Source: an uncultured Alphaproteobacteria bacterium (GTDB taxonomy: Bacteria; Pseudomonadota; Alphaproteobacteria; RF32; CAG-239). From it: 64,000 bases of DNA. Under the pieces are notes generated by a model. It did not search any database. It saw only the letters and a list, made by a program, of their open reading frames with translations, and was not told where the DNA came from. The position numbers and the translations under genes are program-made. Positions 13,259-35,603 of this stretch are shown here, piece by piece (position 1 is the stretch's first letter; each line of letters begins with the position of its first letter). The DNA is taken from assembly GCA_944390265.1 (NCBI GenBank), contig CALXPK010000024.1:11183-75182 (forward strand), written 5' to 3'.

Positions 13259-13335
13259 GGGCGTGTAGCTCAGGTGGTTAGAGCGCTACGTTCACATCGT
13301 AGAGGTCACAAGTTCGAGTCTTGTCACGGCTACCA
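13259..13335 (+). tRNA. tRNA-Val (anticodon CAC)
   Basis: Cloverleaf folded by hand: D-arm GCTC-AGGTGGTTA-GAGC, anticodon arm CTACG-TTCACAT-CGTAG, T-arm ACAAG-TTCGAGT-CTTGT, ACCA end; one G-G mismatch at pair 3-70. Confidence 0.85.
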
Positions 13336-13378: not shown

Positions 13379-13738
13379 AGCCTTTATTCAATGGCGAAAA
13401 ATATACATTTATCGACAGATGTTTAAAGTTTGTAATACATAACTTATTGTTACTTATAATTCTTTGTTTTTTTTAGTGTTTTTTACAAAATAAAAGTTGA
13501 CTTTGTGTTTTGTGTTGCTACTATTGTGGTCAACCATTAACCAAGACTTTTGTATTGTGAATATCATATGTCTGAATGCCTGTTCAAAATGTTACAACTG
13601 ACGGAGTTTGCCTGTGATTGATACCAAAATTGCCGCTTGTTGTCCTTTGTTTTGTTTTGAAACGTGGCAGAATTTATCTCCTACTGCAACTATTTGCAAA
13701 AATTGTCAAAAAATCTTCAGAAGACAAAGGAAAAATCA

Positions 13739-15897: not shown

Positions 15898-15907
15898 GGA
15901 AAAGACA

Positions 15908-16852
15908 ATGAAAGCATTGATAACAGGCGGCGCCGGTTTTATCGGTTCAACCCTTGCGGATAAACTTTTGGCCGAAGGTCACGAGGTGATTGTTGTTGAT
16001 AACTTCAGCGACTATTATGATGTGAAACTCAAATGGCAAAATGTGGCGGCCAATATGAATAATCCGCATTATAAACTTTATGTGACCGATATTGAAAATA
16101 AGACGGCGTTGCGCAAGGTTTTTGAAGAAAACAACATAGATTGCGTTGTCCATTTTGCCGGAAGAGCCGGGGTCAGACCTTCTATTGAAATGCCGGAAGA
16201 ATATGTGAAGGCAAATATTTTGGGGGCGGTTCATGTTTTTGAACTGATGAAAGATTTTGGGGTGAAAAAAATTGTTTTTGCCTCTTCTTCTTCCGTTTAC
16301 GGAAATTGCAAGGCAGAAAAATTTTCCGAAGATTTAAATGTGCGTGAGCCCATTTCTCAATATGCGGCCAGCAAATCGGCCGATGAGCAATTTGCCTATA
16401 CTTATTCAAAATTGTATGGAATCAACGTTGTTTGTTTGCGCTTTTTTACGGTATACGGCCCGCGTCAGAGACCGGATTTGGCCATTAGAAAATTTATTGA
16501 ACTGATTGAACAGGACAAGCCTATCCAGATGTATGGCGATGGCAGCAGTATGCGCGATTATACCTATGTGGATGATATTGTGGCCGGTGTTCGTGCCGCT
16601 ATGGATTATGACAAAACGGCTTATGAAATTATTAATATCGGGGGAAGCTCTCCGGTGACTTTGCGCCAAATGATTGCCACGATTGAAAAAGTTTTGGGTA
16701 AAAAAGCCAAAATTGAACAACTCCCGATGCAAAAAGGCGATGTTGACAAAACCGTTTCCGACATATCCAAAGCCGCCAGACTTTTGGGTTATGCCCCACA
16801 AACCAGTTTTGAAGAAGGTATACAAAAGTTTGTTAAATGGAGAAAGCAATGA
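15908..16852 (+). CDS. NAD-dependent nucleotide-sugar epimerase, probably UDP-glucuronate 4-epimerase
   Basis: MKALITGGAGFIGSTL motif; YAASK catalytic pair; follows ugd. Confidence 0.85.
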   Translation: MKALITGGAGFIGSTLADKLLAEGHEVIVVDNFSDYYDVKLKWQNVAANMNNPHYKLYVTDIENKTALRKVFEENNIDCVVHFAGRAGVRPSIEMPEEYVKANILGAVHVFELMKDFGVKKIVFASSSSVYGNCKAEKFSEDLNVREPISQYAASKSADEQFAYTYSKLYGINVVCLRFFTVYGPRQRPDLAIRKFIELIEQDKPIQMYGDGSSMRDYTYVDDIVAGVRAAMDYDKTAYEIINIGGSSPVTLRQMIATIEKVLGKKAKIEQLPMQKGDVDKTVSDISKAARLLGYAPQTSFEEGIQKFVKWRKQ

Positions 16853-17922
16853 GCTTTTTTCAAAAAATAAGATATCCTAACGGGAAAAGAAAAGTCTTAT
16901 TCTTGGGTAAGAAAATTTTTTCTTATAGGGTCAAAAAAAATGAAAATGCAAAAGTTTTTTTACCTGATAGTTGCTTTGAAAAAAACGATATTTCCGCGGA
17001 ATCAATAAAGGTGGTTTATAAGCCTTTTATTAGTTTAAGTTTAGTTCCTGATTTTATTGCAAATAAAGATATTTATTATAATGAAGATAAACCCAATTTA
17101 TTAGCTAATTTGGACTCAGAATCCTATCGTACAATAATGACGGTATTAAATAAATATGAATATTTGTCCAATGGAGGAAGTAAAGATTTATTAGAAACAT
17201 CGGCGCAAATTCGATATAATAATACAGTTGTTAAGTCGTTTCTAAATAGCATTGAAAAACAAAAAGATGGAACTTATAAGTATAAAGATTTTATCTTGCC
17301 CGAAAATCATTTTGAAACTTCGGTTTTTTTAGATGAACATGGTTTGAATAAAATAAACAAAAAGTTTGTAAATGGTATAATTATTGACGTTGGTAGTTAT
17401 ATTGGTGATTCTATTCTAATTTTTAGAAAACATTTTCCGGATAATCAGATTATTGGTTTTGAAGCAACGACATGTAATTATGAGATGGCTTTGCAAACTC
17501 TAAAGTTAAATAATCTTAAAAATGTTCTGGTAGAAAATTTAGCACTTGGAGATAAAGAAGGAAGTTTAACTTTATCAACCGATCAAGGAAGCGGTAATAG
17601 TTGGGAATTTTCGTATTTATCTGAAAAAGTTGAACATTGTAAAATGGAGACATTTGATAATTATGTTAAAAAGCACAAGATAAAAAAAGTTGGTTTGATA
17701 AAAGTTGATATTGAAGGTGCGGAACAACTTTTTATTCGAGGGGCATTAGAAACAATTAAACGAGATAAGCCCATTATATTGATGAGTATTTATCATAATT
17801 ATGATGATTTGATGCATATTAAACCTTTTTTTGAAAAATTGAATCTTGGCTATACATTCAAAATTCACAAGCCGATAGATACTATTTTTAATGAAATATT
17901 GCTTATATGCCTACCTTTATAA
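16849..17922 (+). CDS. FkbM-family SAM-dependent methyltransferase with an N-terminal extension that begins with a shared leader motif
   Basis: GIIIDVGSYIGDS methyltransferase motif I; N-terminus MSFFQKIRYPNGKRKVLFLGKKIFSY aligns with the N-terminus of 21367..23853; very AT-rich. Confidence 0.8.
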   Translation: MSFFQKIRYPNGKRKVLFLGKKIFSYRVKKNENAKVFLPDSCFEKNDISAESIKVVYKPFISLSLVPDFIANKDIYYNEDKPNLLANLDSESYRTIMTVLNKYEYLSNGGSKDLLETSAQIRYNNTVVKSFLNSIEKQKDGTYKYKDFILPENHFETSVFLDEHGLNKINKKFVNGIIIDVGSYIGDSILIFRKHFPDNQIIGFEATTCNYEMALQTLKLNNLKNVLVENLALGDKEGSLTLSTDQGSGNSWEFSYLSEKVEHCKMETFDNYVKKHKIKKVGLIKVDIEGAEQLFIRGALETIKRDKPIILMSIYHNYDDLMHIKPFFEKLNLGYTFKIHKPIDTIFNEILLICLPL

Positions 17923-17940
17923 ATGCTAAAAAAATTTTAA

Positions 17941-18636
17941 TTGGAAAAGTTGATGAAAAAAATTTTTGTTGAGACAGATTTTGCAAAATTGGATGTTGCT
18001 CGAAAACAACGAACCGGTTTTCCTGAGACGGTTTTTTGTTTGGGAAAGAGTAAAGAGCAAGTTGCTGATATCTTGCAGAATTTTGCATCGGTCGGGCAAA
18101 ATGTTTTGGGAACAAAATGTTCTCCTGAACAATTTGATTTTGCTTTGAAAAAAGGCTTGCCGGTTAAATATGATTCTTTATCACGAGTGATAAGCCTCGG
18201 GCAAAAAGAGACTAATCCTTTTAGGGGAAACATTGCCGTGTGCTGTGCAGGTACATCTGATTTGCCGATTTTGGAAGAAGCTGCTCAAGTTGCCGAATTT
18301 TTTGGAGCTGTTGTTGAAAGGTATGTTGATATCGGTGTTGCCGGAATCCAGCGTTTGTTTGCACAAATTGATAATATTCAAAAGGCTGACGTTGTTATTG
18401 CCGTGGCCGGAATGGAAGGGGCTTTGGCCAGCGTGTTGGCCGGTTTGGTCAGAACTCCGGTGATTGCCGTTCCGACATCGGTGGGATATGGCGCCTCTTT
18501 TCATGGTTTGGCGGCCATGCTTGCCATGCTTAATTCATGTGCCGAAGGCGTGTCGGTTGTTAATATTGATAATGGGTTTGGCGCTGCGGTTCAGGCTTGT
18601 CGAATCTTAGCACTAAAAGGAAGGATGAATGACTAA
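17941..18636 (+). CDS. larB: LarB, nickel-pincer nucleotide biosynthesis carboxylase/hydrolase (PurE-like)
   Basis: AVAGMEGALASVLAGLVRTPVIAVPTSVGYGASFHGLAAMLAMLNSCAEGVSVVNIDNGFGAA matches the LarB/PurE-like core. Confidence 0.85.
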   Translation: MEKLMKKIFVETDFAKLDVARKQRTGFPETVFCLGKSKEQVADILQNFASVGQNVLGTKCSPEQFDFALKKGLPVKYDSLSRVISLGQKETNPFRGNIAVCCAGTSDLPILEEAAQVAEFFGAVVERYVDIGVAGIQRLFAQIDNIQKADVVIAVAGMEGALASVLAGLVRTPVIAVPTSVGYGASFHGLAAMLAMLNSCAEGVSVVNIDNGFGAAVQACRILALKGRMND

Positions 18637-19855
18637 ATATTTATATTTTGACGGGTCTTGCGGTATTGCAGGAGATATGACAGTGGCGGCTCTGTTGGAT
18701 TTGGGTGCTCGTCGTGAAAAGTTGCAACAGGTTTTGGAAAGCCTAAAGTTGGATGGTGTGCATTATCATATTTCTCAAAAGTCTTCTTATAGTATTTTCG
18801 GGTGCGATTTTGATGTCCATCTTCTGCAGAAAACAGATTCTCATGAAGAAGAATATCTTATGAATGCACATCATCATGAACATCGTCATCATGAACATCG
18901 TCATTTGTCTGATGTGTATGAAATTATTGACCGTGGAAAAATGAGCGAAAGGGCACGCCTTTTGGCTAAAAAAATATTTGAAATAGTGGCACAGGCCGAA
19001 GCTAAAGCTCATGGCGTGAAGGTTGAAGATGTGCATTTTCATGAAGTGGGGGCTTTAGATTCAATTGTTGATATTGTTTCGGTTGCCGTGTTGATTGATG
19101 ATTTGGGTATTGAAAACTGTATTGTTACCGGTTTAAATGAAGGGCATGGCTTTGTTACTTGTCAGCATGGAAGTCTGCCGGTTCCGGTTCCTGCTGTTTT
19201 GAATATTGCCGAAAAATATGGCTTGATTTTGCGGCCGACCTCGGTTGAAGGTGAGATGGTGACACCTACCGGTATTGCCGTTGTTGCCGCTTTGAAAACA
19301 GATGCAAAACTTCCTCCTGCTTATAAAATTTTGAAGTCTGGTGTCGGGTTGGGAAAAAGAGATTTTGGTCGAGCTAATTTTTTGCGAGTTCAAATTATTG
19401 AAGATGTGGCTGACGAGAAACAAATTTTTGTAATTGAGAGTAATATTGATTATACCAGTGCCTAAGAATTGGGCTTTGCTCAAGAAAAACTGTTTGCTGC
19501 AAGTGCTTTGAATGTGCAGTTTGATCAAAAAAAAAAAAAAAAATGCCGACCGGCTTATCTGTTACGAATCATTTGCTCGGCTGATAAAGTTTCTGCTTTG
19601 GAAAAAGTTCTTTTTGAAAATACCTCGTCTATCGGTTGTCGGAAATATGTCGTGGAAAGAACAGTTATGACGCGTGAAAATATTTTAGTGCAGCTTGATT
19701 ACGGTCAAGTTAGCGTAAAAAAGTGTTGCTATTTGGATTTGGTGCGTTTTTATCCAGAATTTGAAAGTGTTAGACAATTGGCTTTGCAAACAGGTTTGTC
19801 TTTTCGAAAAATTTTTGATGATGCAAAATTGAAAGCTGAAGAAAACAAATGTTAG
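18629..19855 (+). CDS. larC: LarC nickel insertase (DUF111): the N- and C-terminal parts are in the same frame, separated by a single TAA at 19463-19465; an A17 tract lies at 19527-19543
   Basis: N-terminal part MTKYLYFDGSCGIAGDM... with His-rich HHHEHRHHEHRH; C-terminal part ...GCRKYVVERTVMTRENILVQLDYGQVSVKK... typical of the LarC C-terminal domain; both parts in frame 2. Confidence 0.75.
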
Positions 19856-20667
19856 ATAAGCTACAAAATTATCTGAAAAAAATGTCTGATGACGGAATTG
19901 CTTTGGCATATTCCGGTGGTGTCGATAGTTCTTTATTGCTAAAAATTTTGGCAGATTTGCATCGACAGAAAGATTTTCCTTTGGCCATATTGACCATGAA
20001 AACGGTTTTGCAAAGTTCCGAAGAAATTTCTGAGGCGGAATGTTTTGCCCGTACTTTAGGACTCAATATCAAAATATTGGTTTTTAATCCACTTTCTATA
20101 TCAGAAGTACACCATAATTCAGCTGATCGTTGTTATTTTTGTAAAAAAGCAATGTTTCAAAAATTTGCAGATTATGCCAAAGAGAATAACCTTCGTTATT
20201 TGATTGACGGAACCAATGCCGATGATGGAGACGAATATCGTCCGGGGTTGCGAGCTTTGTATGAGTTGGGTGTAATTTCTCCTCTGGCGGAACTTGGTAT
20301 TAATAAAGCCAATATTCGTCAAATGTCTCAAATTTTGGGACTAGCTTCGGCAACAAAGCCTTCCGTGCCATGTTTGGCTACAAGATTTGAATACGGAACT
20401 TGTTTGAATGAGATGCTGATTCAGCGTGTGGCGCAGGGAGAAGCTCTTATTAGACAAATGTTTCCCAATATGAAAAATTTGCGATTGCGTGTTCATTGCT
20501 GTGGTCGCTTAGCACGAATTGAGGTTGCTAATGAATATATAGGCGAGGTTTGTTCTTTGGCTCAAAATTTGGTTTTGAAATTGAAAAATTTGGGTTTTGA
20601 ATTTGTAACACTGGATTTGGAAGGATTTCGTTCCGGAAGTTTTGATGGACAGAAAAAGGGAAAATAA
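19849..20667 (+). CDS. larE: LarE, ATP-dependent sulfur transferase (PP-loop ATPase)
   Basis: PP-loop SGGVDSS; 272 aa. Confidence 0.85.
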   Translation: MLDKLQNYLKKMSDDGIALAYSGGVDSSLLLKILADLHRQKDFPLAILTMKTVLQSSEEISEAECFARTLGLNIKILVFNPLSISEVHHNSADRCYFCKKAMFQKFADYAKENNLRYLIDGTNADDGDEYRPGLRALYELGVISPLAELGINKANIRQMSQILGLASATKPSVPCLATRFEYGTCLNEMLIQRVAQGEALIRQMFPNMKNLRLRVHCCGRLARIEVANEYIGEVCSLAQNLVLKLKNLGFEFVTLDLEGFRSGSFDGQKKGK

Positions 20668-21329
20668 TGATGACTACAACAATTTTTATGCTCTGGACAA
20701 CAGCTTTTTTGACCGCGGTTATTCATACAATTGCCGGACCGGACCACTATTTGCCGTTTATTGCCATTGCTAAAAGTAAAAATTTTAGCCTTAAAAAGAC
20801 GTTGGTTTGGACGTTTGTTTGTGGACTCGGACATATCGGCAGTGCTTTGCTAATTGCTTTAGCTTTTATTTATTTTTCTCATTGGCTGAGCCAAGAAAAT
20901 TTTGAATGGATTGAGAAAAATCGCGGAGATGTGGCCGCATATGCCCTTATCGGTTTAGGTGCTGCTTATCTTTTGTGGGCTTTGCGGCATCGCTGGCAGC
21001 ATCGGCACGGCTTGGCTCATCAGCATCATTATTTGCCCGATGGTGACCAGCCAAATGTTACCGTTTGGGTCGTTTTTATTATATTCGTGTTTGGTCCTTG
21101 TGAAGCCTTGTTGCCGATTTTGACTGCTTCTAGTGTGTTGGGTGCTTCAGCTATTATTTCCAGCACGATTATTTTTTCATTGGCCACTATCGGTACAATG
21201 ATGCTGACTGTCACTCTTGGCTTGTTGGGAATGAAGGCTTTTCATTTTCAAAAAATGGAAAAATATGCTCATGAAATTGCCGGCGGAACAATCATGACTT
21301 GCGGTATGGCAATTTTGTGTGGACTGTGA
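20667..21329 (+). CDS. Putative nickel/cobalt transporter (NicO/HoxN-like membrane protein)
   Basis: 6-7 TM segments; HTIAGPDH motif in TM1; adjacent to larBCE. Confidence 0.55.
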   Translation: MMTTTIFMLWTTAFLTAVIHTIAGPDHYLPFIAIAKSKNFSLKKTLVWTFVCGLGHIGSALLIALAFIYFSHWLSQENFEWIEKNRGDVAAYALIGLGAAYLLWALRHRWQHRHGLAHQHHYLPDGDQPNVTVWVVFIIFVFGPCEALLPILTASSVLGASAIISSTIIFSLATIGTMMLTVTLGLLGMKAFHFQKMEKYAHEIAGGTIMTCGMAILCGL

Positions 21330-21366
21330 CTTTTGGGTTATTGTTATATAGATGAGGGGACAATAA

Positions 21367-23853
21367 ATGAAACTTATTGAAAAGAAAAAATATTCAGACG
21401 GTCGTCGCAAAGTTTATGTCTTGGGCAAAAAAGTTTTGAGTTATAAACGCAAAAAAGCTCAAGAGGTGCTTGGCGCCGAAGAGAACGGCAAACCCAGTGA
21501 ATATGATATGATTTTTGCCAAAAGATTTTCAGGGCTGAATTTGTCTGAAAAGAGATTTATTTTGGAAAAACAATTTCGTTTTTATGCCGGTTATGATTTA
21601 AACCTCAATAATCCGCAGACCTTTAATGAGAAAACTCAATGGTATAAACTTTATTATTGTCATCCCTTAATGAAAGTTTGTGCTGATAAAGTTTTGGTTA
21701 GGGATTATGTTAAAGAAAAAATCGGCGAGAAATATTTGGTAGACATCATTGGGGTTTATGATGATGTGGAAAAAATTGACTGGGACAAACTTCCAGACCA
21801 GTTTGTTTTGAAAGTTAATCACGGCAGCGGGCAAAATCTTATTTGCAAAGATAAGAAACAGTTTGATATTGCTCAGGCCAAGGCCAAACTTGCCGAGTGG
21901 ATGGATCCGAAAAATAATCATGCATATAATTATTTGGAATATGCTTATAAAAATATTGAACCGAAAATTGTGGCTGAAAAATATATCAAACAAATGGATG
22001 GCAATTTGCTCGACTATAAATTTTTCTGTTTTGACGGCAAAGCCCAATATGTGCAGATTGATCTTGACCGATATACGCATCATACACGTTGCTTTTATGA
22101 TATGGATTTTAAAAAACAAGAATTTACAACTTGTTATCCTTTTTATACCGGTGAGGTTGAAAAGCCAGAAGCCTTTGATGAAATGAGAAAAATTGCTGAG
22201 ACTTTGGCGCATGGCTTTCCTTTTGTGCGGGTTGATTTGTATAATTTGGACGGAAAAGTTAAGTTTGGGGAGATGACTTTTTATCACGGAAACGGAACCG
22301 AACATTTTGAACCCCAAGAATGGGATTTGAAATTGGGCAAACTTTTCAAACTCCCAAAATTTCCCTATATGGCTGATGATGCAACCAAGCGTTCAGTTGG
22401 GGTTTATTATCGCGATGTTTTTACTTATCCTGACAAAAAATATAATTTTCGCCCCTCAAAGGCTTATCCGGAATATCCGTTTCAGAATGAAATTTCTTCC
22501 GAACCTAATGAGGTTTATGATATGGTCAGAGAGAATTTTCATTTGATGAAAATGGATGAAGAAAATTTTGGAACAGCAAAATGGAACCCTCTGAAAGAGA
22601 TTGTTCATCCCGGAGATAAGGTCTTGCTTAAGCCCAATCTGGTTTTGCATCACAATCTTTTGGGCTTGGGCGAGGATTGTCTCTATACACAGCCTTCGGT
22701 GACGGCGGCCGTGATTGATTATGTGCTGATTGCTCTGCAGGGAAAAGGGTCTATCATTGTCGGCGATGCGCCTTTGCAAGAATGTGTCTTTGACACTTTG
22801 GTCCAAGAAAGCGGCTATGATCAGTTGATTGCATATTATCAAAACAAAGGTGTGGATATTCAGCTTAAAGATTTTAGAAACGTGAAAACTTATGTCGGAA
22901 AAGACGGTATTCACTATACGCAAGATGACAGCCAAAACCATAAAGATGAAGGTTTGGTAGTGCATTTGGATGCTTATAGCAGTTTTTATGGTTTGGATGA
23001 GGAAAGAATATCGCGAATGCGCATTACCAACTATGATCCGCGTATTTTGCAAAAACACCATTCTTCGCAAAAACATGAATATAAGGTTTCAAAATATATT
23101 CTTGAGGCAGATGTGATTATCAATCTTCCCAAACCCAAAACACACCGAAAAGCCGGTGCTACTTCTGCCTTAAAAAACTTGGTCGGAATTAATGCCAATA
23201 AAGAATTTTTGCCTCATCATACCAATTTGAGCAAGCAAGAAGGCGGTGATGCCTATTTTCATAAGTCACAAGCCTTGCAAATTGCAAATGAATGGTTAGA
23301 TAAAATGAATATCTTTACCGCAGAAGGTAAGGTTGAAGAGGCACAGAAAGCAAAAGCAATGTATTATCAATATTCAGATTTTGGCAAAGCTGAGTCCGGT
23401 GAGATTTATTGGGAAGGAAGTTGGTATGGTAATGATACCATTTGGAGAACTTTGTTCGATTTGAACAAAATTCTGTTCCATGCCGATAAAAACGGAATCA
23501 TCAGAGCCAATAAGCAAAGAAGATATTTTGTGGTGGCTGACATGATTGTTTCCGGCGAAAAAGAAGGCCCTCTTGAGCCGACACCCAGACCGGTCGGAAT
23601 GATTGCCATGGGCTATGATCCTTGTTGCTTTGATCAGGCCATTGTTTCTATGATGGGGTTTGATTATCGGCTTTTGCCTTCCGTTTATGAGATAAAAAAC
23701 AGAAAAGGCGGTGTTTGCGAGATTACGTCCGGTGCAGAACCTTTGTTGTTGAGCAATGTTCCGCAATGGCAAGGAAAAAGCGTTGATGAAATTAAGCAAA
23801 CTTGTTCTTTGCAATTTTATCCAACCAACGGATGGAAAAAAGTTTTATGGTAA
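21367..23853 (+). CDS. 828-aa fusion protein: shared N-terminal leader motif + TupA-like ATP-grasp amidoligase + C-terminal DUF362-like domain
   Basis: RBS gagggga before the ATG; N-terminus MKLIEKKKYSDGRRKVYVLGKKVLSY; ATP-grasp-like middle; C-terminal region with the PKPKTHRKAGATSALKNLVG motif. Confidence 0.75.
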   Translation: MKLIEKKKYSDGRRKVYVLGKKVLSYKRKKAQEVLGAEENGKPSEYDMIFAKRFSGLNLSEKRFILEKQFRFYAGYDLNLNNPQTFNEKTQWYKLYYCHPLMKVCADKVLVRDYVKEKIGEKYLVDIIGVYDDVEKIDWDKLPDQFVLKVNHGSGQNLICKDKKQFDIAQAKAKLAEWMDPKNNHAYNYLEYAYKNIEPKIVAEKYIKQMDGNLLDYKFFCFDGKAQYVQIDLDRYTHHTRCFYDMDFKKQEFTTCYPFYTGEVEKPEAFDEMRKIAETLAHGFPFVRVDLYNLDGKVKFGEMTFYHGNGTEHFEPQEWDLKLGKLFKLPKFPYMADDATKRSVGVYYRDVFTYPDKKYNFRPSKAYPEYPFQNEISSEPNEVYDMVRENFHLMKMDEENFGTAKWNPLKEIVHPGDKVLLKPNLVLHHNLLGLGEDCLYTQPSVTAAVIDYVLIALQGKGSIIVGDAPLQECVFDTLVQESGYDQLIAYYQNKGVDIQLKDFRNVKTYVGKDGIHYTQDDSQNHKDEGLVVHLDAYSSFYGLDEERISRMRITNYDPRILQKHHSSQKHEYKVSKYILEADVIINLPKPKTHRKAGATSALKNLVGINANKEFLPHHTNLSKQEGGDAYFHKSQALQIANEWLDKMNIFTAEGKVEEAQKAKAMYYQYSDFGKAESGEIYWEGSWYGNDTIWRTLFDLNKILFHADKNGIIRANKQRRYFVVADMIVSGEKEGPLEPTPRPVGMIAMGYDPCCFDQAIVSMMGFDYRLLPSVYEIKNRKGGVCEITSGAEPLLLSNVPQWQGKSVDEIKQTCSLQFYPTNGWKKVLW

Positions 23854-23865
23854 GAAAGGAAAAAA

Positions 23866-24888
23866 ATGCAAACGAAAACTTCTATAGTTGTTAATTCTGA
23901 TAATAATTTAGCTTTTGCCGTAGCTACATTATTTGTTAATTTGTTGGAAACTAAGAAAAATGAAAATTTTCTGGATTTGAACGTTTTGGTTACTCCGGAT
24001 TTTGATGATGAGTATATCAAAAAAATAAAGTCCATAGAGCAACAATATGAGGGGCAGTGTTCGGTTAATGTTATAAAAATGGATCACCGATTTGACAATA
24101 TTCGCAATAAGACAGGATATATTACAAATTGTGCTGCCTATAGAATGTGTGTTGCAGAGATGTTTCCCTCGCATCATAAAATGTTGTATATTGACACGGA
24201 TGTCGTCGTCTTTGATGATTTGTACGAGCTCTTTAATACGGATATTAACGGATATTATATTGGAGGCGTGTTTAGTATTGAGCATTATATTTATAGAAAT
24301 GAATTGATAGAAAAATTATCCATTCCCGATTTATCTCAATATGTTAATTCCGGAGTTCTTTTATTGAATTTGGATGAGATAAGAAAAGATAATGTTGAAG
24401 CTAAATTGCACGCGTTGCTCGGCTCATATGATGATTCTGTTGATCAACATATTTTTAATAAGGTTTGTTACGGGCATATAAAGCTGTTGCCTTTTAAATA
24501 TAATGTTTTTCAATCTTCAGAATGGATGTATGAAAGCAAAAAAGCGTTGGTTGAGATGACTGAAGCGGAGTTGGAAGAAGTTATTAAAAGGCCGGTAATT
24601 TATCATTATACGGGAACTGTTAAGCCGTGGCTTGTGGCGGATAAAAAATATGCCTTAAGATGGATGAGATATTATAAAAAATCGCCGTTTGCAACAGAAA
24701 AATTACCACTACATTTCATGGATGAACATGTGTATCTTATGCCCAAATTGACTTTTTGGCAAAAAATATTTTCTATTAATTTAATTTCCAATAAAAATAA
24801 TACTAAGAGCAAATATAAAGTTTTTCTATTGGGTATGCAAATAAATTACAGAAAAAAGAAGAAACAGAAACAGCAAGGAGAAAATTAA
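23866..24888 (+). CDS. Family 8 glycosyltransferase (LgtC/RfaJ-like)
   Basis: YIDTDVVVFDD DxD motif; GYITNCAAYRM. Confidence 0.85.
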   Translation: MQTKTSIVVNSDNNLAFAVATLFVNLLETKKNENFLDLNVLVTPDFDDEYIKKIKSIEQQYEGQCSVNVIKMDHRFDNIRNKTGYITNCAAYRMCVAEMFPSHHKMLYIDTDVVVFDDLYELFNTDINGYYIGGVFSIEHYIYRNELIEKLSIPDLSQYVNSGVLLLNLDEIRKDNVEAKLHALLGSYDDSVDQHIFNKVCYGHIKLLPFKYNVFQSSEWMYESKKALVEMTEAELEEVIKRPVIYHYTGTVKPWLVADKKYALRWMRYYKKSPFATEKLPLHFMDEHVYLMPKLTFWQKIFSINLISNKNNTKSKYKVFLLGMQINYRKKKKQKQQGEN

Positions 24889-25877
24889 TGATTCCAATAG
24901 TTGCAATATCTGATGCCAAGCAGGCATTTGCTTTGGCAACATTGTTTGTTAATTTGATGGAAACTAAGGCAAAAGAAACTGTTTATGAACTCAATGCTTT
25001 GGTCGCACCGGATTTTACCGATGAGGATGTGGCAAAAATAAAATCTCTTGAGCATAGTTATCAGGATTGCAAAATCAATATTATCAAGATGGATAATCGC
25101 TTTGATCATATCAAAAACGGAACCGGTTATATTGCCAATTGTTGTGCTTATAAAATGTGTATGGCGGAGATGTTTCCGCAATATGATAAAATTTTGTATC
25201 TGGATACGGATATGCTTGTTTTTGAAGATTTGAGCCCGCTTTATAATACGGATATGTCCGATAATTATATCGGTGGGGTCTTTTCTATTGATCATTATCT
25301 TAATCGGCGTGAGTTGATTGAAAAACTTAATATTCCCGATATGACGGACTATGTGAATGCCGGAATGCTGTTGATGAATTTGGCGGAAATCAGAAAAAAC
25401 AGAATTGAAGAAAAATTGCAAGCCTTAATCGGCTCGTATAATGATTCGGTTGATCAGCATATTTTTAACAAGGTTTGCTATGGGCATATTAAGCATTTGC
25501 CTTTCAAATATAATGTCTTTAAATCTTCCGAGTGGATGTATGATAACAAGGAGGCTTTGGTCTGCATGACCGGAGAAGAGCTTGATGAAATAATCAACAG
25601 TCCGGCTATTTATCATTATACCGGTAAAGAAAAGCCTTGGAACACACTGAAAATTAAATATGGTGTGCGGTGGATTTGGTATTATAAAAAGACGGCTTAC
25701 AAAGATTTAAAGTTGATTTTGGCCGAAGTCAAAAAAATAGAAACGACAACACCGCAAAAAGTTAAAATGCGTTTAATCGACTATGTTTTTTCAATTAAAA
25801 AATATAAAAAACAAGGTAAATCTTTTAAACAATTGACCATTTTAGGGCTTAAGCTGAAATTGCAAAAAAATAAATAA
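24888..25877 (+). CDS. Family 8 glycosyltransferase, tandem paralog of the preceding gene (about 70% aa identity by eye)
   Basis: YLDTDMLVFED DxD motif; colinear similarity to 23866..24888. Confidence 0.85.
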   Translation: MIPIVAISDAKQAFALATLFVNLMETKAKETVYELNALVAPDFTDEDVAKIKSLEHSYQDCKINIIKMDNRFDHIKNGTGYIANCCAYKMCMAEMFPQYDKILYLDTDMLVFEDLSPLYNTDMSDNYIGGVFSIDHYLNRRELIEKLNIPDMTDYVNAGMLLMNLAEIRKNRIEEKLQALIGSYNDSVDQHIFNKVCYGHIKHLPFKYNVFKSSEWMYDNKEALVCMTGEELDEIINSPAIYHYTGKEKPWNTLKIKYGVRWIWYYKKTAYKDLKLILAEVKKIETTTPQKVKMRLIDYVFSIKKYKKQGKSFKQLTILGLKLKLQKNK

Positions 25878-25901
25878 TTTGCTTTTGAGGAAATGTGAAA
25901 A

Positions 25902-26873
25902 TTGATTAAAATAAATTTTATTGTTTTATCTTCTGCAGATCGAGGATCAACCCGAATCAGAGTGTTTAATCTGGTTAATGCTTTGAAACGCTATGACGTT
26001 GATGTCAGAATCAATGCGCCGCTTTATTGGGGTGATATTTGTGCTTTTCATAAAGAGTTAAAACCCAACAAACTGGAACGGCGTTTGCGTCTTGCCAATT
26101 TGCTGGGAAAATTTACTTGTTTTGATATTGATGACTATTTTGAGGATTATAAAAAGGTTGTTAAGGCGGCGGATTTGTGCATTAACAGTACCGCATATTT
26201 GCAGAAGATAAACAGTCAATATAATCTGCATGATATTGTGGTGGACAATAGTCTTGACGTGGATGATGTCAATATCAAACTCAAACAAGATTGTTCTGCG
26301 CATCAAAAGGTTTGTTGGTACGGTTGCCATGTTAATGCTTATATTTTGGATAAGTTTAATATCAAAAACGTGACCATTATTTCTGAAAAAGGAGATATTA
26401 TTTGGCACAAAGAAACCATAGACCAAGATTTGCAAAAATTTGATTTGACGATTATTCCGCAAGAAAAAACACCGCATACTCTGGCTAAGACACATTGCCG
26501 AATGTTGAAGGCTTTGTATTTGGGCGTGCCGGTGATGGTTACGGATATGCCGGAATATGTGGACTTGGCTCAATATCTCAATTATCCCAAAGAATTTATT
26601 GTGACCAATTCGCAAGATTGGAATCAAAAAATTGAAGATTTTAAGTCCGGAAAGTTGAAATTTAGCTTTGATTTTGAACAGGCACGCAAGAAAATATTGC
26701 AGAGATACGCGCCTGCTGTTATTGCCGATAGCTGGATTAAACAAGTGAAAGCTGAATATTTGCAGTATCAAAAACACAAAATCAGAAATTGGTTTAAGAA
26801 AAACAGCCTTAAAAATCTATATAGATTGCTTAAAATAACAATACGTATCAGACATGGAAAGCACGCCAGATAA
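25902..26873 (+). CDS. Putative glycosyltransferase-like protein (TTG start)
   Basis: Long AT-rich ORF in line with the glycan locus; family is uncertain. Confidence 0.45.
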   Translation: MIKINFIVLSSADRGSTRIRVFNLVNALKRYDVDVRINAPLYWGDICAFHKELKPNKLERRLRLANLLGKFTCFDIDDYFEDYKKVVKAADLCINSTAYLQKINSQYNLHDIVVDNSLDVDDVNIKLKQDCSAHQKVCWYGCHVNAYILDKFNIKNVTIISEKGDIIWHKETIDQDLQKFDLTIIPQEKTPHTLAKTHCRMLKALYLGVPVMVTDMPEYVDLAQYLNYPKEFIVTNSQDWNQKIEDFKSGKLKFSFDFEQARKKILQRYAPAVIADSWIKQVKAEYLQYQKHKIRNWFKKNSLKNLYRLLKITIRIRHGKHAR

Positions 26874-26948
26874 AAGTTTAAGGGTTTAATGACACAAAAA
26901 ACAGGTGCCAAAATTTTGACACCTGTTTTTTGTTGGCCTAAAGGTTTG

Positions 26949-28423
26949 TCAGATTTTGACAATGCCATGGGCAAAGGCATAAATGGCCCAAAGTGAAAGA
27001 ATAATAAAGATGGTTACAGCGGCATATTCACGAGCCGTAAAGAGCTTCTCATTTGGCTCAGACTCTTTTCTGGCCCAGATATAAACCGGAATACCCAAGG
27101 TGACAATCACAACCGCCATCAGCAAATAATTTAAGCCGGCGGCATAAATCAGCCAAAGAGCATAGATTGAGCCGAAAACCGAGGTAAACAAAGCCGAAGA
27201 GCGTTTGACCGGTAAGCCGCTCGGATATTCGCCGTCTTCACAAAGTTTCCATAAATAAGCGCAGGAGGCAAAATAGGCCGGCAATACCATGACGCTGGTG
27301 ATGCTCAACATGGTGTTCCAGGCGTTGTTGGAGAAATAGACCAACAAGATGAAAATTTGCATCATGGCTGAGGTGACCCAAAGTGAAACGCTCGGTGAAC
27401 CGGCTTCATTCTCTTTGGTGAAGGCTTTGGGAAAAGTACCGTTTTCAGCAGCAGCTTGCGGAATTTGTGCGGTGACGATTGTCCAGGCCAGCCAGCTGGT
27501 CAACACCGAAAGAACCAAGCCGATGTTCATAATCCAAGCGCCCCAAGGTCCGACAACTTTTTCCAAAATGCCGGCGGTGGACGGAGGTGGAACAGCAGCG
27601 AGTTCGGGTTGTGACATCAATCCATAAGGCAGTAATGAGAGCAACAGATAAATGACTAAGCAACCGATGAAGCCCAAAAACGTTGCTTTGCCGATTTCTT
27701 GAACATTTTTGGCGCGGTTAGACATGACAACGGCACCTTCAATACCAATAAATGCCCACAAGGTGACCAACATGGTCGATTTGATTTGGGTTTCCAAACC
27801 GCCGAGTTTGGCTTTGGTTTCAATGGCTTCGCCCCAGAAGTCAAAGTCAAAATGAGCAAATTTGAACACAAACAGCATTATCAAAATGAACAAAACCAAC
27901 GGGACAACCTTAACAACCGTGCCGATGGTGTTGATGACGGAGGCTTGTTTGATGCCTTTCAAGACCAAAAAGTTGAAGCCCCAAATGATGATTGAGCCCC
28001 GATGATGGAGGCGAGGTTGTTGCCGCCGGCAAAGTAGGGCGGAAAGAAGTAGTTCAACGCATCCATCGTGATGACGGCATAACCGACATTGCCGCAAACC
28101 TGACAAAGCCAATAGGACCAGCCGATGGTGAATCCGGCAAAGGGGCCGAAACCTTCACGGCTGTACATATAAATACCGGTGGTTAAATCCGGCTTGGCCA
28201 TGGACAAGATGCTGAAGGTGTTGGCAATGAAATAGATACCGATACCGGTGATGACCCAAGCCAGCAAAACGGCTCCGGCAGAAGCATGCGAGGCCATGTT
28301 TTGCGGCAAGGAATAAATGCCGCCGCCAATCATGGAGCTGACAACAATCGCGGCTAAGGCCAGAACACCCAAGCCGTTGGGGTTGTTTTTCAGCGGTGCG
28401 GCAGAAGTTTTTTTATCAGCCAT
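26949..28423 (-). pseudogene. APC-family basic amino acid antiporter (arginine:agmatine or arginine:ornithine, AaxC/ArcD-like) disrupted by a -1 frameshift at a C4 (minus-strand G4) tract 27996-27999
   Basis: N-part [11 protein letters not shown]...GGNNLASII in one frame, C-part [19 protein letters not shown]... in another; adding one G gives a contiguous ...[19 protein letters not shown]. Confidence 0.8.
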
Positions 28424-28499
28424 AATTTTTTTTCCTTAATTAACAAAATAAAACAAAACTTGCCCCTTTACTCAAAGAGGCAAGTCTTTTGTCTGAAAA

Positions 28500-29111
28500 T
28501 TACAATTTTTTAGGCGGAACTGGCGTGAATTTTGCCGGTTCGGCGTGTTCAAAATTGAGGAAGCCCAAAGCAGTTAAGCAATAGCCAAACTGTTGGGTGA
28601 TGTTAATGTAATTGTGCCACATTTGAAATTCGGAGTGTTTTTCAACACCACGGAGGGACAATTCATGGTTTAAAGATTTTTTGAGCCACATTTCAGCGTG
28701 ACCTTGAGCGATTTCATCATCAATAAAGGTGTCAAAATATTCAACATATTCTGCGGCCCAACCGCCAATCAGTTCACCTTTTTTGTTTTTGCCCCAGCAA
28801 ATGCCCAAGCCGGTGGCAATGGCTTTGTAATCATCGCGGCTGGCGCCGTTGCCGGCCATAATCACTTCCAAAACCGCACCGTGGTGGAACTGTTTGACGA
28901 TTTTATCATCAAGCGGAACGATGTTGCCGTAAATTTCTTTGGGCAAAACTGAAGTGTAGGGAATGACGTTGAAGTTTTCAATGCGGGCTTGCATTAAAGC
29001 CGAATCATAGCAGAAGGTTTCAAATGGTTGCGGGGGAATGCCCTCATCTGCTTGGCCGGCACCGCCGGTGATGAAAGCCATGGTTGGGTAACGTACACCT
29101 TGAGTTGTCAT
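28500..29111 (-). CDS. pdaD: Pyruvoyl-dependent arginine decarboxylase (PdaD/AaxB family)
   Basis: RBS aaaggag 8 nt upstream of the ATG giving [33 protein letters not shown]...; about 203 aa. Confidence 0.8.
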
Positions 29112-29291
29112 ATTTTTTTCTCCTTTTATTTTGTTAGACATAACAAACAACTGAGATGTAATCTTAAAAGTTGTATTTTCAACGGGTATAGGTATAAATA
29201 TTTTTTGTTTTTCACAGAGGAAAAAATAGAGCTATAAAATTTGGAAAAAAGAAACTATATATAAAGTAGTTATATTTTGAGGAGAACGGAT

Positions 29292-29687
29292 ATGAAAAAA
29301 CTTTTATCTCTTATGTTGGCTTTAACTTTGACGGCGGCTTGCTCATCGTCCGAAAATTCTTTCAAAGGCAAAGAATATAAAATGCAAGATGCTGCTAACA
29401 ACGCCGAGATTACTTTGGGTTTTGACGAGGCAGAAAATAATTATCACGGCCAAATCGTCAATAATTATTTCGGACAATATGAAGTTGATGGCAACAACAT
29501 TAAATTCGGCCCTGCCGGTGCAACCATGATGGCCGGACCGGAAAATTTGATGAAAGCCGAAAGCCAATATTTGCTGACTTTGCCGACCATTACCAGTTTT
29601 ACATTGGATGGCAAAAAACTTACCTTCAAAACCGCTGAAGGAAAAGAGTTGGTTTTTGAAGAAGTTGAAACAGCTCAAGAAAAATAG
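29292..29687 (+). CDS. META/HslJ-like lipoprotein
   Basis: RBS gaggag; lipobox LTAAC; NNIKFGP...MMAGPE pattern. Confidence 0.65.
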   Translation: MKKLLSLMLALTLTAACSSSENSFKGKEYKMQDAANNAEITLGFDEAENNYHGQIVNNYFGQYEVDGNNIKFGPAGATMMAGPENLMKAESQYLLTLPTITSFTLDGKKLTFKTAEGKELVFEEVETAQEK

Positions 29688-29695
29688 GCCCAAAT

Positions 29696-30028
29696 ATGCT
29701 GAAACTTTTGTCGGTCTTTTGCATTTTGTTTGCTTTTGAGGCGCAGGCGTTGGTTAATACCAGCACGCTTAAGGGAAAAATGCGGCAGTTGGATAAAATT
29801 TGCTGGGAAATCGGGCGGACGGCCTCTTTTCCGTCTATGTGCAAAAGCCCGACAAGGGTGGTCTATAAAAATGTGCTTTGCTGGGGGTGTCCGGAAGCCA
29901 CACGTTGTAATCCGGCTTGCAAAGGCGGCAAAGTTTGCATGAACCAAAAATGCGTTTGTCCGCCCAACCAACTTTTGTATGATTGCAACGGACGTTGTCT
30001 TCCGCCAACGGTGCCTTGTACAAAATAA
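29696..30028 (+). CDS. Small secreted cysteine-rich protein (110 aa, 12 Cys)
   Basis: Signal peptide MLKLLSVFCILFAFEAQA; CNPACKGGKVCMNQKCVCPPNQLLYDCNGRCLPPTVPC; locally GC-richer than its neighbours. Confidence 0.55.
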   Translation: MLKLLSVFCILFAFEAQALVNTSTLKGKMRQLDKICWEIGRTASFPSMCKSPTRVVYKNVLCWGCPEATRCNPACKGGKVCMNQKCVCPPNQLLYDCNGRCLPPTVPCTK

Positions 30029-33481: not shown

Positions 33482-34591
33482 ATGCAAAAATGGCGAAAAA
33501 AACAAAATAATACAAAGCCATACAGCGATAGAAAAAATAGCCCGTCTTTTTTGGAACCCAAAAATTATGCGGCTATTGATTTGGGAACAAACTCTTGTCG
33601 ATTGGTGATTGCCACGCCGACGCCCAGTTCTTTCAGAATTGTGGAAACTTTCTCTCGAATCACTCGTTTGGGTGAGGGCATCATCAAAGATAACGAACTT
33701 TCCCGTCCGGCCATCAAACGCACCATCGGTGCTTTGAAAGTTTGTGCCGGTGTGTTGGCGGAATATGCGCCGATTTATAAAGGACGCTATGTGGCAACGG
33801 CAGCTTGCCGTAGGGCGGTGAACTGCAAAGAGTTTATTGATGCGGTCAAACGCGAAACCGGCTTGAATATTGAGATTATTTCTTCCAAGGAAGAATCTCG
33901 ACTGGCGGTTGTCGGCTGTATTCCGCTCTTAAACCGCAATATTAAACGTGCTTTGGTGTTTGATATCGGCGGCGGTTCTTCGGAAATTTCTTTGGCAAGG
34001 GTGACCAACAGCGGCAAAACTTTTATTGAAGGTTTTGTCTCTCTGCCCTATGGTGTGGTGACCATTTCCGAGGCTTTTCCGGCTCAAGAAATGACCGATT
34101 TGGCTTATGATACCATTATTGAACGCACGCATAAGATTTTGTCTGAATTTGAAGAAAAATATCAGATTACCGATGCCATTCGCAATCAAGAGATTCAGGT
34201 TATCGGAACTTCCGGCACGGTTACGGTTTTGGGTGCCGTTCACCTCAATTTGCCGCGTTATAATCGCTCCGCCGTGGATGGTTTGTCTATCAGCCGACAA
34301 GATATTGAACGCGCCATTGCCAAAATCAAACGCATGGGGGATGAGGGCCGGCGCAAACATGCTTGTATCGGTGCACAAAAGGCCGATTTGACTATGGCCG
34401 GTTGCGCCATTATTGAGGCACTTTGTTCTTTTTGGCCGATTGCCGAAATTACTGTTGCCGACAGAGGAATCAGAGAGGGAATTTTGCTTGATTTGATGCA
34501 TGCGCAAAATGCAAACCGCAAACCGATGAACAAGAAAAGACGTTATCCTTTTGCAAGAAAGGGAAGGAAGTATAATCATGAGCAGAAATAA
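33482..34591 (+). CDS. Ppx/GppA-family phosphatase (exopolyphosphatase / pppGpp phosphohydrolase)
   Basis: AAIDLGTNSCRLVIA; second phosphate motif VFDIGGGSSE. Confidence 0.85.
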   Translation: MQKWRKKQNNTKPYSDRKNSPSFLEPKNYAAIDLGTNSCRLVIATPTPSSFRIVETFSRITRLGEGIIKDNELSRPAIKRTIGALKVCAGVLAEYAPIYKGRYVATAACRRAVNCKEFIDAVKRETGLNIEIISSKEESRLAVVGCIPLLNRNIKRALVFDIGGGSSEISLARVTNSGKTFIEGFVSLPYGVVTISEAFPAQEMTDLAYDTIIERTHKILSEFEEKYQITDAIRNQEIQVIGTSGTVTVLGAVHLNLPRYNRSAVDGLSISRQDIERAIAKIKRMGDEGRRKHACIGAQKADLTMAGCAIIEALCSFWPIAEITVADRGIREGILLDLMHAQNANRKPMNKKRRYPFARKGRKYNHEQK

Positions 34592-35603
34592 GTGTTTTGC
34601 CGCTATTGATTTGGGAACAAACTCTTGCCGGTTGCTGATTGCCAATCAACACAAAAAATATTTGTTCAGCGAGGCTTATTCGGTCAAACTCGGCGAGGGT
34701 ATGTATGAACATATGAAATTTACGCCCGAAGCCATTGAGCGGGGTTTGGAGTGTTTTTATAAACTCAAACAGATTATGGACAGATTTCATATTGTCAAAA
34801 CGCGTGCCATTGCCACGGCCTCTTGCCGCATGGCCAAAAATGCGCAGGAGTTTATTGATAAAGTTTATCATGAATCGATGATAAAACTGGAAGTGATTGA
34901 CGGCTATGAAGAAGCACGCCTCAATTTGAAAGGTGCTTTGGAGCATGTGTGCGGCAAAACCGAATATGTGGTTTTGTATGATTTGGGCGGCGGTTCGACC
35001 GAAATCACTTTGGCTACCAATACCAAAGACCCAAAAATCATTCATACCATATCTATTCCGTGGGGGGCGCGCAATGCTTCCGAAGCCTTTGATTTGGTGG
35101 AATATGAGCCGGAAAAAGCGCAAAAACTGCATGATGAGATTGCCCGCTATGCCAACGACTTTGTCAAAGATTCTCATTTGAAAGAGATTAAGGACAAGGT
35201 TTGTTTTGTGGCCACATCCAGCACGCCGCTGCGCTATGTTTCCATGATTGAAAAATTTGGCAAATATGACCGCGATAAGGCGGACGGTCATGTTATTCAA
35301 TGCAAGGATATTGACGCGCAAATAGAAGGTGTTTATAAGCTCACCCGTGCACAGATGATGGAAAATTTGTATATCGGACAAAAACGCTCCTCTATTTTTA
35401 CGGCGGCCTGCGTCATTTTCAAAACCATTTATGATTGTTTGGGCGCCAAAGAAATTACCGCTTCGCTTAAAAGCGCCAAAGACGGCATTGTTTCTGAATT
35501 GATTGATGAATATTATAAAGAACATAATAGGGAAAATAATGGGCAAATTAACAAAATCAGCCAAAGAAATCCGCGGACGCCATCAATTGACCGTTCGCGT
35601 TAA
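34578..35603 (+). CDS. Ppx/GppA-family phosphatase, tandem paralog
   Basis: AAIDLGTNSCRLLIA; LYDLGGGSTE. Confidence 0.8.
   Translation: MSRNKCFAAIDLGTNSCRLLIANQHKKYLFSEAYSVKLGEGMYEHMKFTPEAIERGLECFYKLKQIMDRFHIVKTRAIATASCRMAKNAQEFIDKVYHESMIKLEVIDGYEEARLNLKGALEHVCGKTEYVVLYDLGGGSTEITLATNTKDPKIIHTISIPWGARNASEAFDLVEYEPEKAQKLHDEIARYANDFVKDSHLKEIKDKVCFVATSSTPLRYVSMIEKFGKYDRDKADGHVIQCKDIDAQIEGVYKLTRAQMMENLYIGQKRSSIFTAACVIFKTIYDCLGAKEITASLKSAKDGIVSELIDEYYKEHNRENNGQINKISQRNPRTPSIDRSR

Follow-up and report, generated by a model that had tools for sequence, protein, structure and literature searches.

A putative aaxB-aaxC arginine:agmatine exchange operon with a probably recently broken aaxC in an uncultured gut alphaproteobacterium

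Results

The locus lies on the minus strand of a 64,000-nucleotide stretch of DNA from an uncultured alphaproteobacterium of the RF32 lineage; the whole stretch is referred to as the window and all coordinates are positions within it. The upstream gene, aaxB (28500-29111), recognized from its open reading frame, its PF01862 match and its similarity to Chlamydia felis AaxB, is apparently intact and encodes a predicted pyruvoyl-dependent arginine decarboxylase proenzyme of 203 amino acids. The Shine-Dalgarno sequence AAGGAG can be read 8 nt 5' of its ATG (29120-29125, minus strand), in agreement with the good ribosome-binding site claimed in a preliminary description of this DNA. A 76-nt spacer (28424-28499) separates aaxB from the antiporter gene aaxC, which is present as two pieces in different frames. 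The N fragment (27959-28423, minus strand; ORF list and TIGR00905) encodes 154 amino acids, comprising 142 native residues and a 12-residue out-of-frame tail ending at TGA, and the C part (26949-27996, minus strand; TIGR00905 and alignments of the repaired protein) continues in the other frame for about 349 codons plus a stop, with no further stops or indels. Directly past the aaxC stop, folding identified a strong hairpin followed by a U-run (26891-26938, minus strand; MFE -26.9 kcal/mol, z -6.4, with 0 of 200 shuffles folding as well), an intrinsic terminator in common with the convergent upstream gene.

We examined the decarboxylase at the level of profile, motif and fold. A Pfam profile search matched residues 9-158 to PF01862 at 80.4 bits against a gathering cut-off of 22.7, and over 192 amino acids the protein was 71% identical to C. 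felis AaxB (CF0286), with 87% positives; CF0286 was found with an AaxB-like query sequence, only the real database proteins returned being used. The protein contains the self-cleavage motif NVIPYT53-S54VLP, and in a 36-sequence alignment Thr53 was invariant and Ser54, the conserved pyruvoyl-forming serine, nearly so; cleavage is accordingly predicted between these two residues. G116 and E121 are also conserved, the Gly116 column being invariant in the same alignment, where it is the counterpart of C. trachomatis AaxB Gly115, a residue required for proenzyme cleavage (PMC2720952). Together these data support the assignment of the 28500-29111 product as an AaxB-type decarboxylase, as had been proposed from the reading frame. 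Exact-protein look-ups returned no record for either version of the decarboxylase (203 aa or 216 aa) or for the aaxC C fragment (P0506).

The relationship to archaeal PdaD was more distant. A phmmer search against PDB sequences gave no meaningful match, so recognition of the PdaD relationship depended on the Pfam profile together with a fold search: the AF2 model (pLDDT 76) had Methanocaldococcus jannaschii PdaD (2qqd, 1n2m) as its best PDB fold matches in Foldseek (E ~4e-11, probability 1.0, target TM-score ~0.8), with pyruvoyl histidine decarboxylase next. The archaeal enzyme has in common with the window protein its fold, the PF01862 domain and the serine converted into the pyruvoyl group, but the two share only 18% identity and the window protein is about 40 residues longer. 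PdaD serves polyamine biosynthesis and is not known to have a dedicated antiporter. The window protein scored 27.3 and 27.4 bits on the PdaD equivalogs TIGR00286 and NF009064, below their cut-offs of 106.95 and 207, and was therefore filed in the AaxB clade rather than as a PdaD equivalog; C. felis AaxB likewise had no PdaD equivalog match at E <= 1e-10.

The window contains no uninterrupted aaxC reading frame, a 1-nt deletion leaving only the first 142 residues native. Both pieces hit one set of APC profiles, in neighboring regions that do not overlap, and in a TIGR00905 profile search the N fragment covered positions 5-134 and the C part positions 133-473. Insertion of a single base restored a 491-aa antiporter, including the 23-residue stretch spanning the site that had been predicted beforehand. 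The repaired protein aligned end to end with relatives, without gaps or stops and at up to 99.6% identity, the value reached with the intact conspecific protein P0504, and was 61% identical over 481 amino acids to C. felis AaxC, in keeping with the earlier view of the broken neighbor as the basic-amino-acid antiporter partner of the decarboxylase. It scored 567.7 on TIGR00905, the model of the basic amino acid/polyamine antiporter (APA) family (C. felis AaxC, 590.2; cut-off 409.05). The agreement of the fragments and the restored protein with a broken antiporter is far beyond chance.

Because AaxB and repaired AaxC are 71% and 61% identical to their C. felis counterparts and are encoded by adjacent genes, we interpret the locus as an aaxB-aaxC exchange operon. 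The comparison proteins are C. felis orthologues and not the characterized C. pneumoniae proteins themselves (AaxB/CPn1032 and AaxC/CPn1031), in which the arginine:agmatine exchange system was first described (PMC2720952). Arginine specificity, self-cleavage, antiport and a role in acid resistance are suggested by 61-71% identity to chlamydial orthologues. We considered whether the pair might instead act on another substrate, such as histidine/histamine, ornithine or lysine, given that the decarboxylase reaches only 27 bits on PdaD equivalogs (cut-offs 107 and 207) and the antiporter falls below the cut-offs for the ArcD (TIGR03810; 516.8 versus 591), AdiC (NF007929; 161.5 versus 574) and histidine-histamine antiporter (NF040512; 456 versus 725) equivalogs. 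However, C. felis AaxB and AaxC show the same sub-threshold pattern, the window proteins are 71% and 61% identical to these orthologues with invariant active-site columns, and biochemical work has demonstrated that the chlamydial system is specific for arginine/agmatine (PMC2720952). A different substrate is therefore very unlikely.

The aaxB-aaxC spacer contains a terminator-like site (28455-28488, minus strand), found by site search and folding and made up of a 15-bp hairpin and U-run; the ribosome-binding site of aaxC, AAGGA, comes after it. The hairpin had an MFE of -21.2 kcal/mol (z -3.2), and the spacers of 65 of the 78 relatives gave z <= -2 with differing stem sequences. It is likely to be an intercistronic partial terminator or attenuator.

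The frameshift site is CCCC on the plus strand (27997-28000), GGGG in the gene, where comparison with relatives showed one base to be deleted. The four-nucleotide tract and -1 shift of the preliminary description therefore stand, while its coordinates (27996-27999) are corrected by one position. The site falls within a segment predicted to span the membrane (residues ~137-158), at a motif, IIGGS, present in 75 of the 84 homologous loci. Relatives among these loci mostly have GGCGGY, with GGGGGT in one only, and an intact conspecific allele has GGCGGC, which together indicate that a C was deleted (GGCGGC to GGGGC) and that the deletion itself made the run of four Gs. We accordingly rejected a contracted homopolymer, and with it the earlier idea of a slip in a pre-existing tract. 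These data also bear on whether the tract is a phase-variable contingency switch of aaxC operated by slipped-strand mispairing, which a frameshift in a short G run and the coexistence of intact and broken alleles within one species might suggest. The run is only 4 nt long, though, the GGCGGY of the intact conspecific and nearly all relatives offers no homopolymer to slip, and the three broken copies described below are equal in length and belong to one haplotype. Phase switching, as raised in the preliminary description, has a negligible probability.

We found the same four-G allele on two metagenome contigs, L081 and L082, from two other samples (ENA samples SAMEA6814634 and SAMEA6814635; assemblies ERZ28614490 and ERZ28613692), and on both contigs ENA calls the exact 154-aa truncated product. 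Over 1379 bp, L081 aligned to the window without gaps and with three SNPs; L082 was identical to the window over 610 bp. The three broken copies have equal tract lengths and a linked TCC-to-TCA SNP in common, which indicates one inherited haplotype. The intact allele is carried by a conspecific contig (L085) that is syntenic with the window and 99.33% identical to it in nucleotides over 6.2 kb; it comes from the BRZ_FT sample (ERZ24773337) and has only ~2x coverage. Three other indels separate L085 from the window, all intergenic, leaving the aaxC deletion as the only coding indel over the 6.2 kb. The strain-specific site pattern, with GG-N(0,1)-GG allowed, was not found in a scan of JGI metagenome contigs.

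These comparisons were weighed against a sequencing or assembly error that would leave aaxC intact in the organism. The window belongs to a metagenome-assembled genome, its C fragment P0506 being recorded from an NCBI contig of 79.6 kb, the repaired gene is otherwise undamaged and under strong purifying selection, the gene is intact at each of the 80 other species-level loci, and the window and the L081 and L082 contigs may stem from one study, in which case a systematic error could be shared. Against this, independent assemblies of two other samples contain the allele, one contig representing a different haplotype (three SNPs); the deletion removed a C from GGCGGC rather than shortening a long homopolymer; it is the sole coding indel relative to a 99.3%-identical contig; and no other gene is split in the window stretches read. 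The last two observations led us to reject an error-prone long-read assembly. We consider the sequencing slip suggested earlier unlikely; most likely, the aaxC frameshift is a real, very recent within-species mutation and the gene an ordinary strain-level pseudogene.

Substitution patterns were examined alongside the lesion. The aaxC dN/dS between the window and a related locus (L001) was 0.026, with three amino-acid changes, all conservative, on the window branch and four on the L001 branch. No relaxed selection is visible in aaxC, a pattern equally compatible with an artefact and with a mutation of very recent date.

We also asked whether the split gene could still yield a working transporter, either through ribosomal frameshifting or through termination-reinitiation at TTGA, which would give two polypeptides. 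The TGA that ends the N fragment (27959-27961) overlaps an in-frame TTG of the C part, and an ORF from that TTG (P0506, 337 aa) is called in a public record. Yet neither a slippery heptamer nor a stimulatory structure occurs at the site, no Shine-Dalgarno sequence precedes the TTG, the break falls in a hydrophobic helix, 12 native residues are absent from both pieces, and the gene is split in none of 80 relatives. A functional split transporter is thus highly improbable.

In gut Alphaproteobacteria the decarboxylase is encoded at no fewer than 205 genome loci, so that a family described earlier as uncommon in proteobacteria is common in this gut clade. An intact antiporter gene lay directly downstream in 80 of 80 related loci examined. 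A tblastn search of the window with C. felis AaxA detected no homologue of aaxA (best E 0.48), and an aaxA homologue lay beside the cassette in one of the 80 related loci (L055). The cassette occupies the same chromosomal position in four relatives (L001, L002, L085 and L086), and a mobile cassette was therefore rejected. In the window, a variable glycan island has been inserted on one side of the cassette. Flanks differ between most of the related loci.

Discussion

We propose, with a probability of roughly 75%, that aaxB and aaxC form a two-gene arginine:agmatine exchange operon lacking aaxA, in which aaxC has recently been broken and is not under a programmed switch. In such a system AaxC would import arginine and export agmatine; AaxB, self-cleaved at Thr53-Ser54 to generate its pyruvoyl cofactor, would decarboxylate the arginine and consume a cytoplasmic proton; and the exchange cycle could provide acid tolerance and/or proton-motive force in the gut or during stomach passage. 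In this strain lineage a C appears to have been lost from the Gly-Gly codons midway along a transmembrane helix encoded by aaxC. AaxC is truncated after 142 native residues, so the exchange cycle is most likely disabled while aaxB is still intact.

The locus closely resembles the chlamydial AaxABC system. In both, aaxB and aaxC are adjacent and co-oriented with aaxB first, AaxB is ~195-203 amino acids long with a Thr-Ser cleavage site (Ser53 in C. pneumoniae) and a conserved glycine (Gly116 here, Gly115 in C. trachomatis D, where self-cleavage depends on it), AaxC shows the same NCBIfam score pattern, and some strains naturally carry frameshifted alleles of aaxC. The differences are that the window has no aaxA (an OprB-type porin gene), whereas the C. 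felis locus reads OprB porin, aaxB, aaxC; that the spacer is 76 nt with a terminator-like hairpin versus 9 nt in C. felis; that chlamydial Trp128 is Phe here; and that the host is a free-living gut commensal rather than an obligate intracellular pathogen. Frameshifts in aaxC occur naturally in C. trachomatis serovars A and B, with dN/dS not raised (PMC2720952). This is a direct precedent and, together with the broken allele in two other samples and the intact conspecific, favors the earlier suggestion that an arginine-agmatine module is being inactivated as in Chlamydia.

Other systems share the logic to a lesser degree. The arginine-dependent acid resistance system of E. coli, AdiA/AdiC (AR3), also couples a decarboxylase to an APC-superfamily arginine:agmatine antiporter, but its decarboxylase AdiA uses PLP and has no relationship to AaxB. 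Among solved structures, those of AdiC gave the best matches to the window antiporter (E ~5e-35), which is nevertheless only distantly related to AdiC (161 bits versus a cut-off of 574). Genes of the aaxB/aaxC type were described from gut bacteria by Mou et al. (2021), one example being the aaxB/antiporter/hdcA cluster in Bacteroides stercorirosoris, which shows that the AaxB family had already been noticed outside Chlamydia (PMC8465708). Their gut-commensal clusters likewise combine a decarboxylase of the AaxB type and an APC antiporter, but include a histidine decarboxylase as third component, where the present locus is a plain two-gene cassette in Alphaproteobacteria. A literature search on agmatine in RF32 Alphaproteobacteria found no paper.

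Chlamydial AaxB falls within a tight clade (>70% identity) of proteins from gut Rhodospirillales-like Alphaproteobacteria and some Elusimicrobia, the next relatives outside it being only ~50% identical. A tentative and rather doubtful extension is that these bacteria are a free-living reservoir for the aaxBC genes of Chlamydiaceae, and that the conserved hairpin is a regulated attenuator setting the antiporter/decarboxylase ratio. If the reservoir reading were true, the system would be decaying in parallel in a commensal and in C. trachomatis.

The broken aaxC is a natural within-species knock-out, with an intact allele 99.6% identical in protein available for comparison. It also illustrates that a short-homopolymer frameshift in a metagenome-assembled genome can be checked without reads, by finding the exact truncated product elsewhere and an intact conspecific allele. 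Beyond that, the locus is an ordinary recent pseudogene. More broadly, these data place the chlamydial AaxB/AaxC exchange system among uncultured gut Alphaproteobacteria, in a large clade in which the two genes almost always stay together and purifying selection on them is very strong. Such retention and selection suggest that acid or energy physiology based on arginine is important to these little-known commensals, which may add agmatine to the gut.

Identification of an aaxB-aaxC locus

The decarboxylase gene (aaxB) is a 203-codon ORF on the minus strand (28500-29111) with a Shine-Dalgarno motif, AAGGAG (29120-29125), 8 nt 5' of its ATG; a search of the upstream region found no convincing sigma-70 promoter. 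It is followed, after a 76-nt spacer, by an antiporter gene (aaxC) in two pieces on the same strand: an N-terminal fragment of 154 codons (27959-28423) and a long ORF in another frame that overlaps the fragment's end and stops at 26949. In profile searches the fragments covered adjoining stretches of the same permease profiles (TIGR00905 positions 5-134 and 133-473). The frame changes at a CCCC on the plus strand at 27997-28000, which the preliminary description had placed one base too far left. One added base yields a 491-aa antiporter with the sequence ...[23 protein letters not shown]... and zero further stops. Together with a decarboxylase match to Pfam PF01862 (80.4 bits, cut-off 22.7), this bears out the description of a decarboxylase ORF beside a frameshifted antiporter.

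Both NCBIfam equivalog models for PdaD gave the decarboxylase just 27 bits (cut-offs 107 and 207) and phmmer against PDB sequences returned zero matches; strictly speaking, it is not a PdaD of the archaeal type. Its close relatives (~650 proteins, 74-87% identity) were nearly all from gut metagenomes, the named sources being 'MAG: Alphaproteobacteria bacterium' or the elusimicrobium Candidatus Avelusimicrobium faecicola. Chlamydial proteins were reached with an AaxB-like query, and solely the real database entries returned were used. Among these, Chlamydia felis CF0286 (P0294, 195 aa) was 71% identical to the window protein, with 87% positives, over 192 residues. In a 36-sequence alignment window AaxB retained every invariant column, including Thr53-Ser54 and Gly116, and the pyruvoyl-forming serine is present as Ser54. 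Thr53-Ser54 corresponds to Ser53 of C. pneumoniae AaxB, where the proenzyme is cleaved and the pyruvoyl group forms, and Gly116 to Gly115 of C. trachomatis D AaxB, replacement of which stops self-cleavage (PMC2720952). The top structural matches of an AlphaFold2 model (mean pLDDT 76) were M. jannaschii PdaD 2qqd and 1n2m (E ~4e-11, probability 1.0, 18% identity, target TM-score ~0.8), followed by the pyruvoyl histidine decarboxylase 1pya. The identity to CF0286, PF01862 match, cleavage site and fold place the proposed PdaD/AaxB-type enzyme with the AaxB type.

AaxB identity stayed above 70% between Alphaproteobacteria, Elusimicrobia and Chlamydia, a similarity that reflects either exceptionally tight constraint or transfer on more than one occasion. 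One chlamydia-like AaxB (P0296, 191 aa) is missing four residues, SVLP, including the pyruvoyl-forming serine, in the alignment near residue 54; an in-frame deletion may have inactivated this enzyme naturally as well. AaxB-like domains (43-46% identity) were also found at the C-terminus of far longer proteins of 387-479 aa (P0136, P0138, P0139).

In the C. felis genome CF0286 has an OprB-family porin gene on one side and a gene for a 486-aa permease on the other, the published chlamydial order aaxA-aaxB-aaxC (PMC2720952). The repaired window antiporter was 61% identical to this permease over 481 residues. Both exceeded the cut-off of 409 for TIGR00905, the basic amino acid/polyamine antiporter subfamily (567.7 for the window, 590.2 for C. 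felis), and both fell below the cut-offs for ArcD, AdiC and histidine-histamine antiporters, so the broken neighbour is indeed the suggested basic-amino-acid antiporter partner. From the matches of both proteins to the C. felis pair, the conserved residues and the fold, we conclude that the locus is an aaxB-aaxC pair.

Chlamydial AaxABC is the closest known system, although it differs in three respects. The window has no aaxA homologue (best E 0.48 in a tblastn with C. felis AaxA), its host is a free-living gut organism, and its spacer contains a 15-bp hairpin and then a U-run (28455-28488, minus strand; MFE -21.2 kcal/mol, z -3.2), whereas that of C. felis spans only 9 nt and has no such hairpin. 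Strong hairpins (z <= -2) occupied the same spot in 65 of 78 relatives' spacers (median MFE -23 kcal/mol in 74 nt) with unrelated stem sequences. The element resembles a conserved partial terminator, one that would reduce antiporter relative to decarboxylase expression, and may be an attenuator setting the ratio of the two. A second hairpin, downstream of aaxC (26891-26938, minus strand; -26.9 kcal/mol, z -6.4), acts as the operon's terminator.

Distribution and genomic context

With one genome taken per species, a scan identified 205 loci encoding a relative of the decarboxylase; for this gut alphaproteobacterial clade, the preliminary view of the family as uncommon in proteobacteria is thus incorrect. 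Gut-bacterial genes of the AaxB and AaxC types have also been noted in the literature (PMC8465708). The best 80 of the 205 loci, retained for comparison, were all from gut MAGs (Alphaproteobacteria, Azospirillum, Rhodospirillales, Candidatus Scatocola and 'Proteobacteria CAG:495') of humans, ruminants, chickens, rabbits and mice. At every one of these 80 the antiporter lay directly 3' of the decarboxylase, intact in one frame over practically its whole length. One locus alone among the 80 had an OprB-family porin beside the cassette (L055, 4611-5642; 38% identical to C. felis AaxA), and may be a full aaxABC-like set in a non-chlamydial genome. In a rough neighbour-joining tree without bootstraps, chlamydial AaxB grouped within a tight gut clade whose next relatives were only ~50% identical; this placement fits the published view of horizontal acquisition of aax genes by Chlamydiaceae, and is compatible with transfer in either direction.

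Cassette flanks were unlike one another in most species, and the closest relatives carried the cassette at the identical chromosomal site. Two of them (L002 and the conspecific contig L085) share the side with the META-lipoprotein, M16 peptidase, RNase HII and methyltransferase. In the window the META-domain lipoprotein gene (29277-29687), divergent from aaxB, is followed by a cysteine-rich 110-aa ORF (29696-30028, plus strand) with an N-terminal hydrophobic signal-like segment and no Pfam match, conserved in L002 (90% identity) and L085. On the other side, ~13.5 kb of surface-glycan biosynthesis genes (13400-26900) separates aaxC from a tRNA-Val gene (13259-13335) at the opposite edge, and includes a UDP-glucose dehydrogenase (13664-15037), a TupA-like ATP-grasp/DUF362 protein (21367-23853) and two family-8 glycosyltransferases (23866-25877). 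This block is missing in L001 and L086, where aaxC abuts the tRNA-side DNA equivalent to window 6.5-13.4 kb; judged from this synteny, 13.4-26.9 kb is an insertion specific to the window lineage, and looks like a strain-variable island. Adjoining ORFs of 369 and 350 aa with a ~40-nt overlap (33482-35603, plus strand) look, by their sequences, like tandem Ppx/GppA-type paralogues.

Origin of the frameshift

Two ENA metagenome assemblies, each from a different sample, contain exactly this truncated product of 154 aa. One contig (L082) matches the window without a single difference across 610 bp. The other (L081) carries the same 4-G allele and aligns gap-free over 1379 bp with three substitutions, two of them in aaxB (N63I and a synonymous change) and the third, also synonymous, in aaxC; it is thus a distinct haplotype. 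An intact 491-aa antiporter (P0504), 99.6% identical to the repaired protein and in its 90% cluster, is encoded on L085, which is fully syntenic with the window at 99.33% identity over 6.2 kb; an intact allele therefore exists within the same species. The three other indels between L085 and the window are all intergenic.

At the site L085 reads ATC GGC GGC TCC, and the window, L081 and L082 read ATC GG- GGC TCA. The two glycine codons are GGCGGC or GGCGGT in 56 of 84 homologous loci and GGGGGT in one only. The lesion is thus loss of the C from GGCGGC, which itself made the G4 run: the 4-nt homopolymer previously described is present, but arose by this deletion and not by contraction. With no ancestral homopolymer to slip, the evidence speaks against both of the earlier alternatives, a homopolymer sequencing slip and a slipped-strand phase switch. 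An artefact common to the assemblies would have to recur in two other samples, one with a distinct haplotype, and we regard it as improbable. The truncating allele in other samples and the intact conspecific copy instead favour the proposal that an arginine-agmatine module is being inactivated, as in Chlamydia.

Age and predicted consequence of the lesion

Between the window and L001, which has the same cassette at 91% nucleotide identity, dS was 0.45 for aaxB and 0.51 for aaxC, with dN/dS of 0.005 and 0.026; at this divergence the two decarboxylase proteins remain 100% identical (tblastn). With L002 as outgroup, the window aaxC branch carried three conservative replacements (I170V, I173V, L385F) and the L001 branch four, and no second lesion was found in window aaxC. 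The low dN/dS, few replacements and single lesion indicate that inactivation was probably very recent. Chlamydial aax pseudogenes likewise show no dN/dS sign of relaxation (Giles et al., PMC2720952).

By homology to the characterised chlamydial system, AaxC would import arginine and export agmatine, and AaxB would consume one proton per decarboxylation; such an exchange cycle would raise internal pH and could generate membrane potential. In a gut organism the intact pair would most likely serve acid tolerance or energy gain. The frameshift, at residue 143, falls within a hydrophobic segment (~137-158) and leaves 142 native and 12 foreign residues; the sequence of aaxB, upstream, is unaffected, and the cycle would be expected to halt. 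A working transporter in two pieces is conceivable, as the TGA that ends the N fragment shares bases with a TTG in the frame of the C part (TTGA, 27958-27961), and a public ORF call of 337 aa (P0506) begins at this TTG, but is unlikely because the break destroys a transmembrane helix and no ribosome-binding site precedes the TTG. We conclude that window aaxC is an ordinary, recent, strain-level pseudogene in a chlamydial-type AaxB-AaxC system. AaxB without AaxC had no precedent among the 80 loci examined, and the intact pair in all of these relatives suggests that the broken allele is transient, or tolerated under some conditions only.
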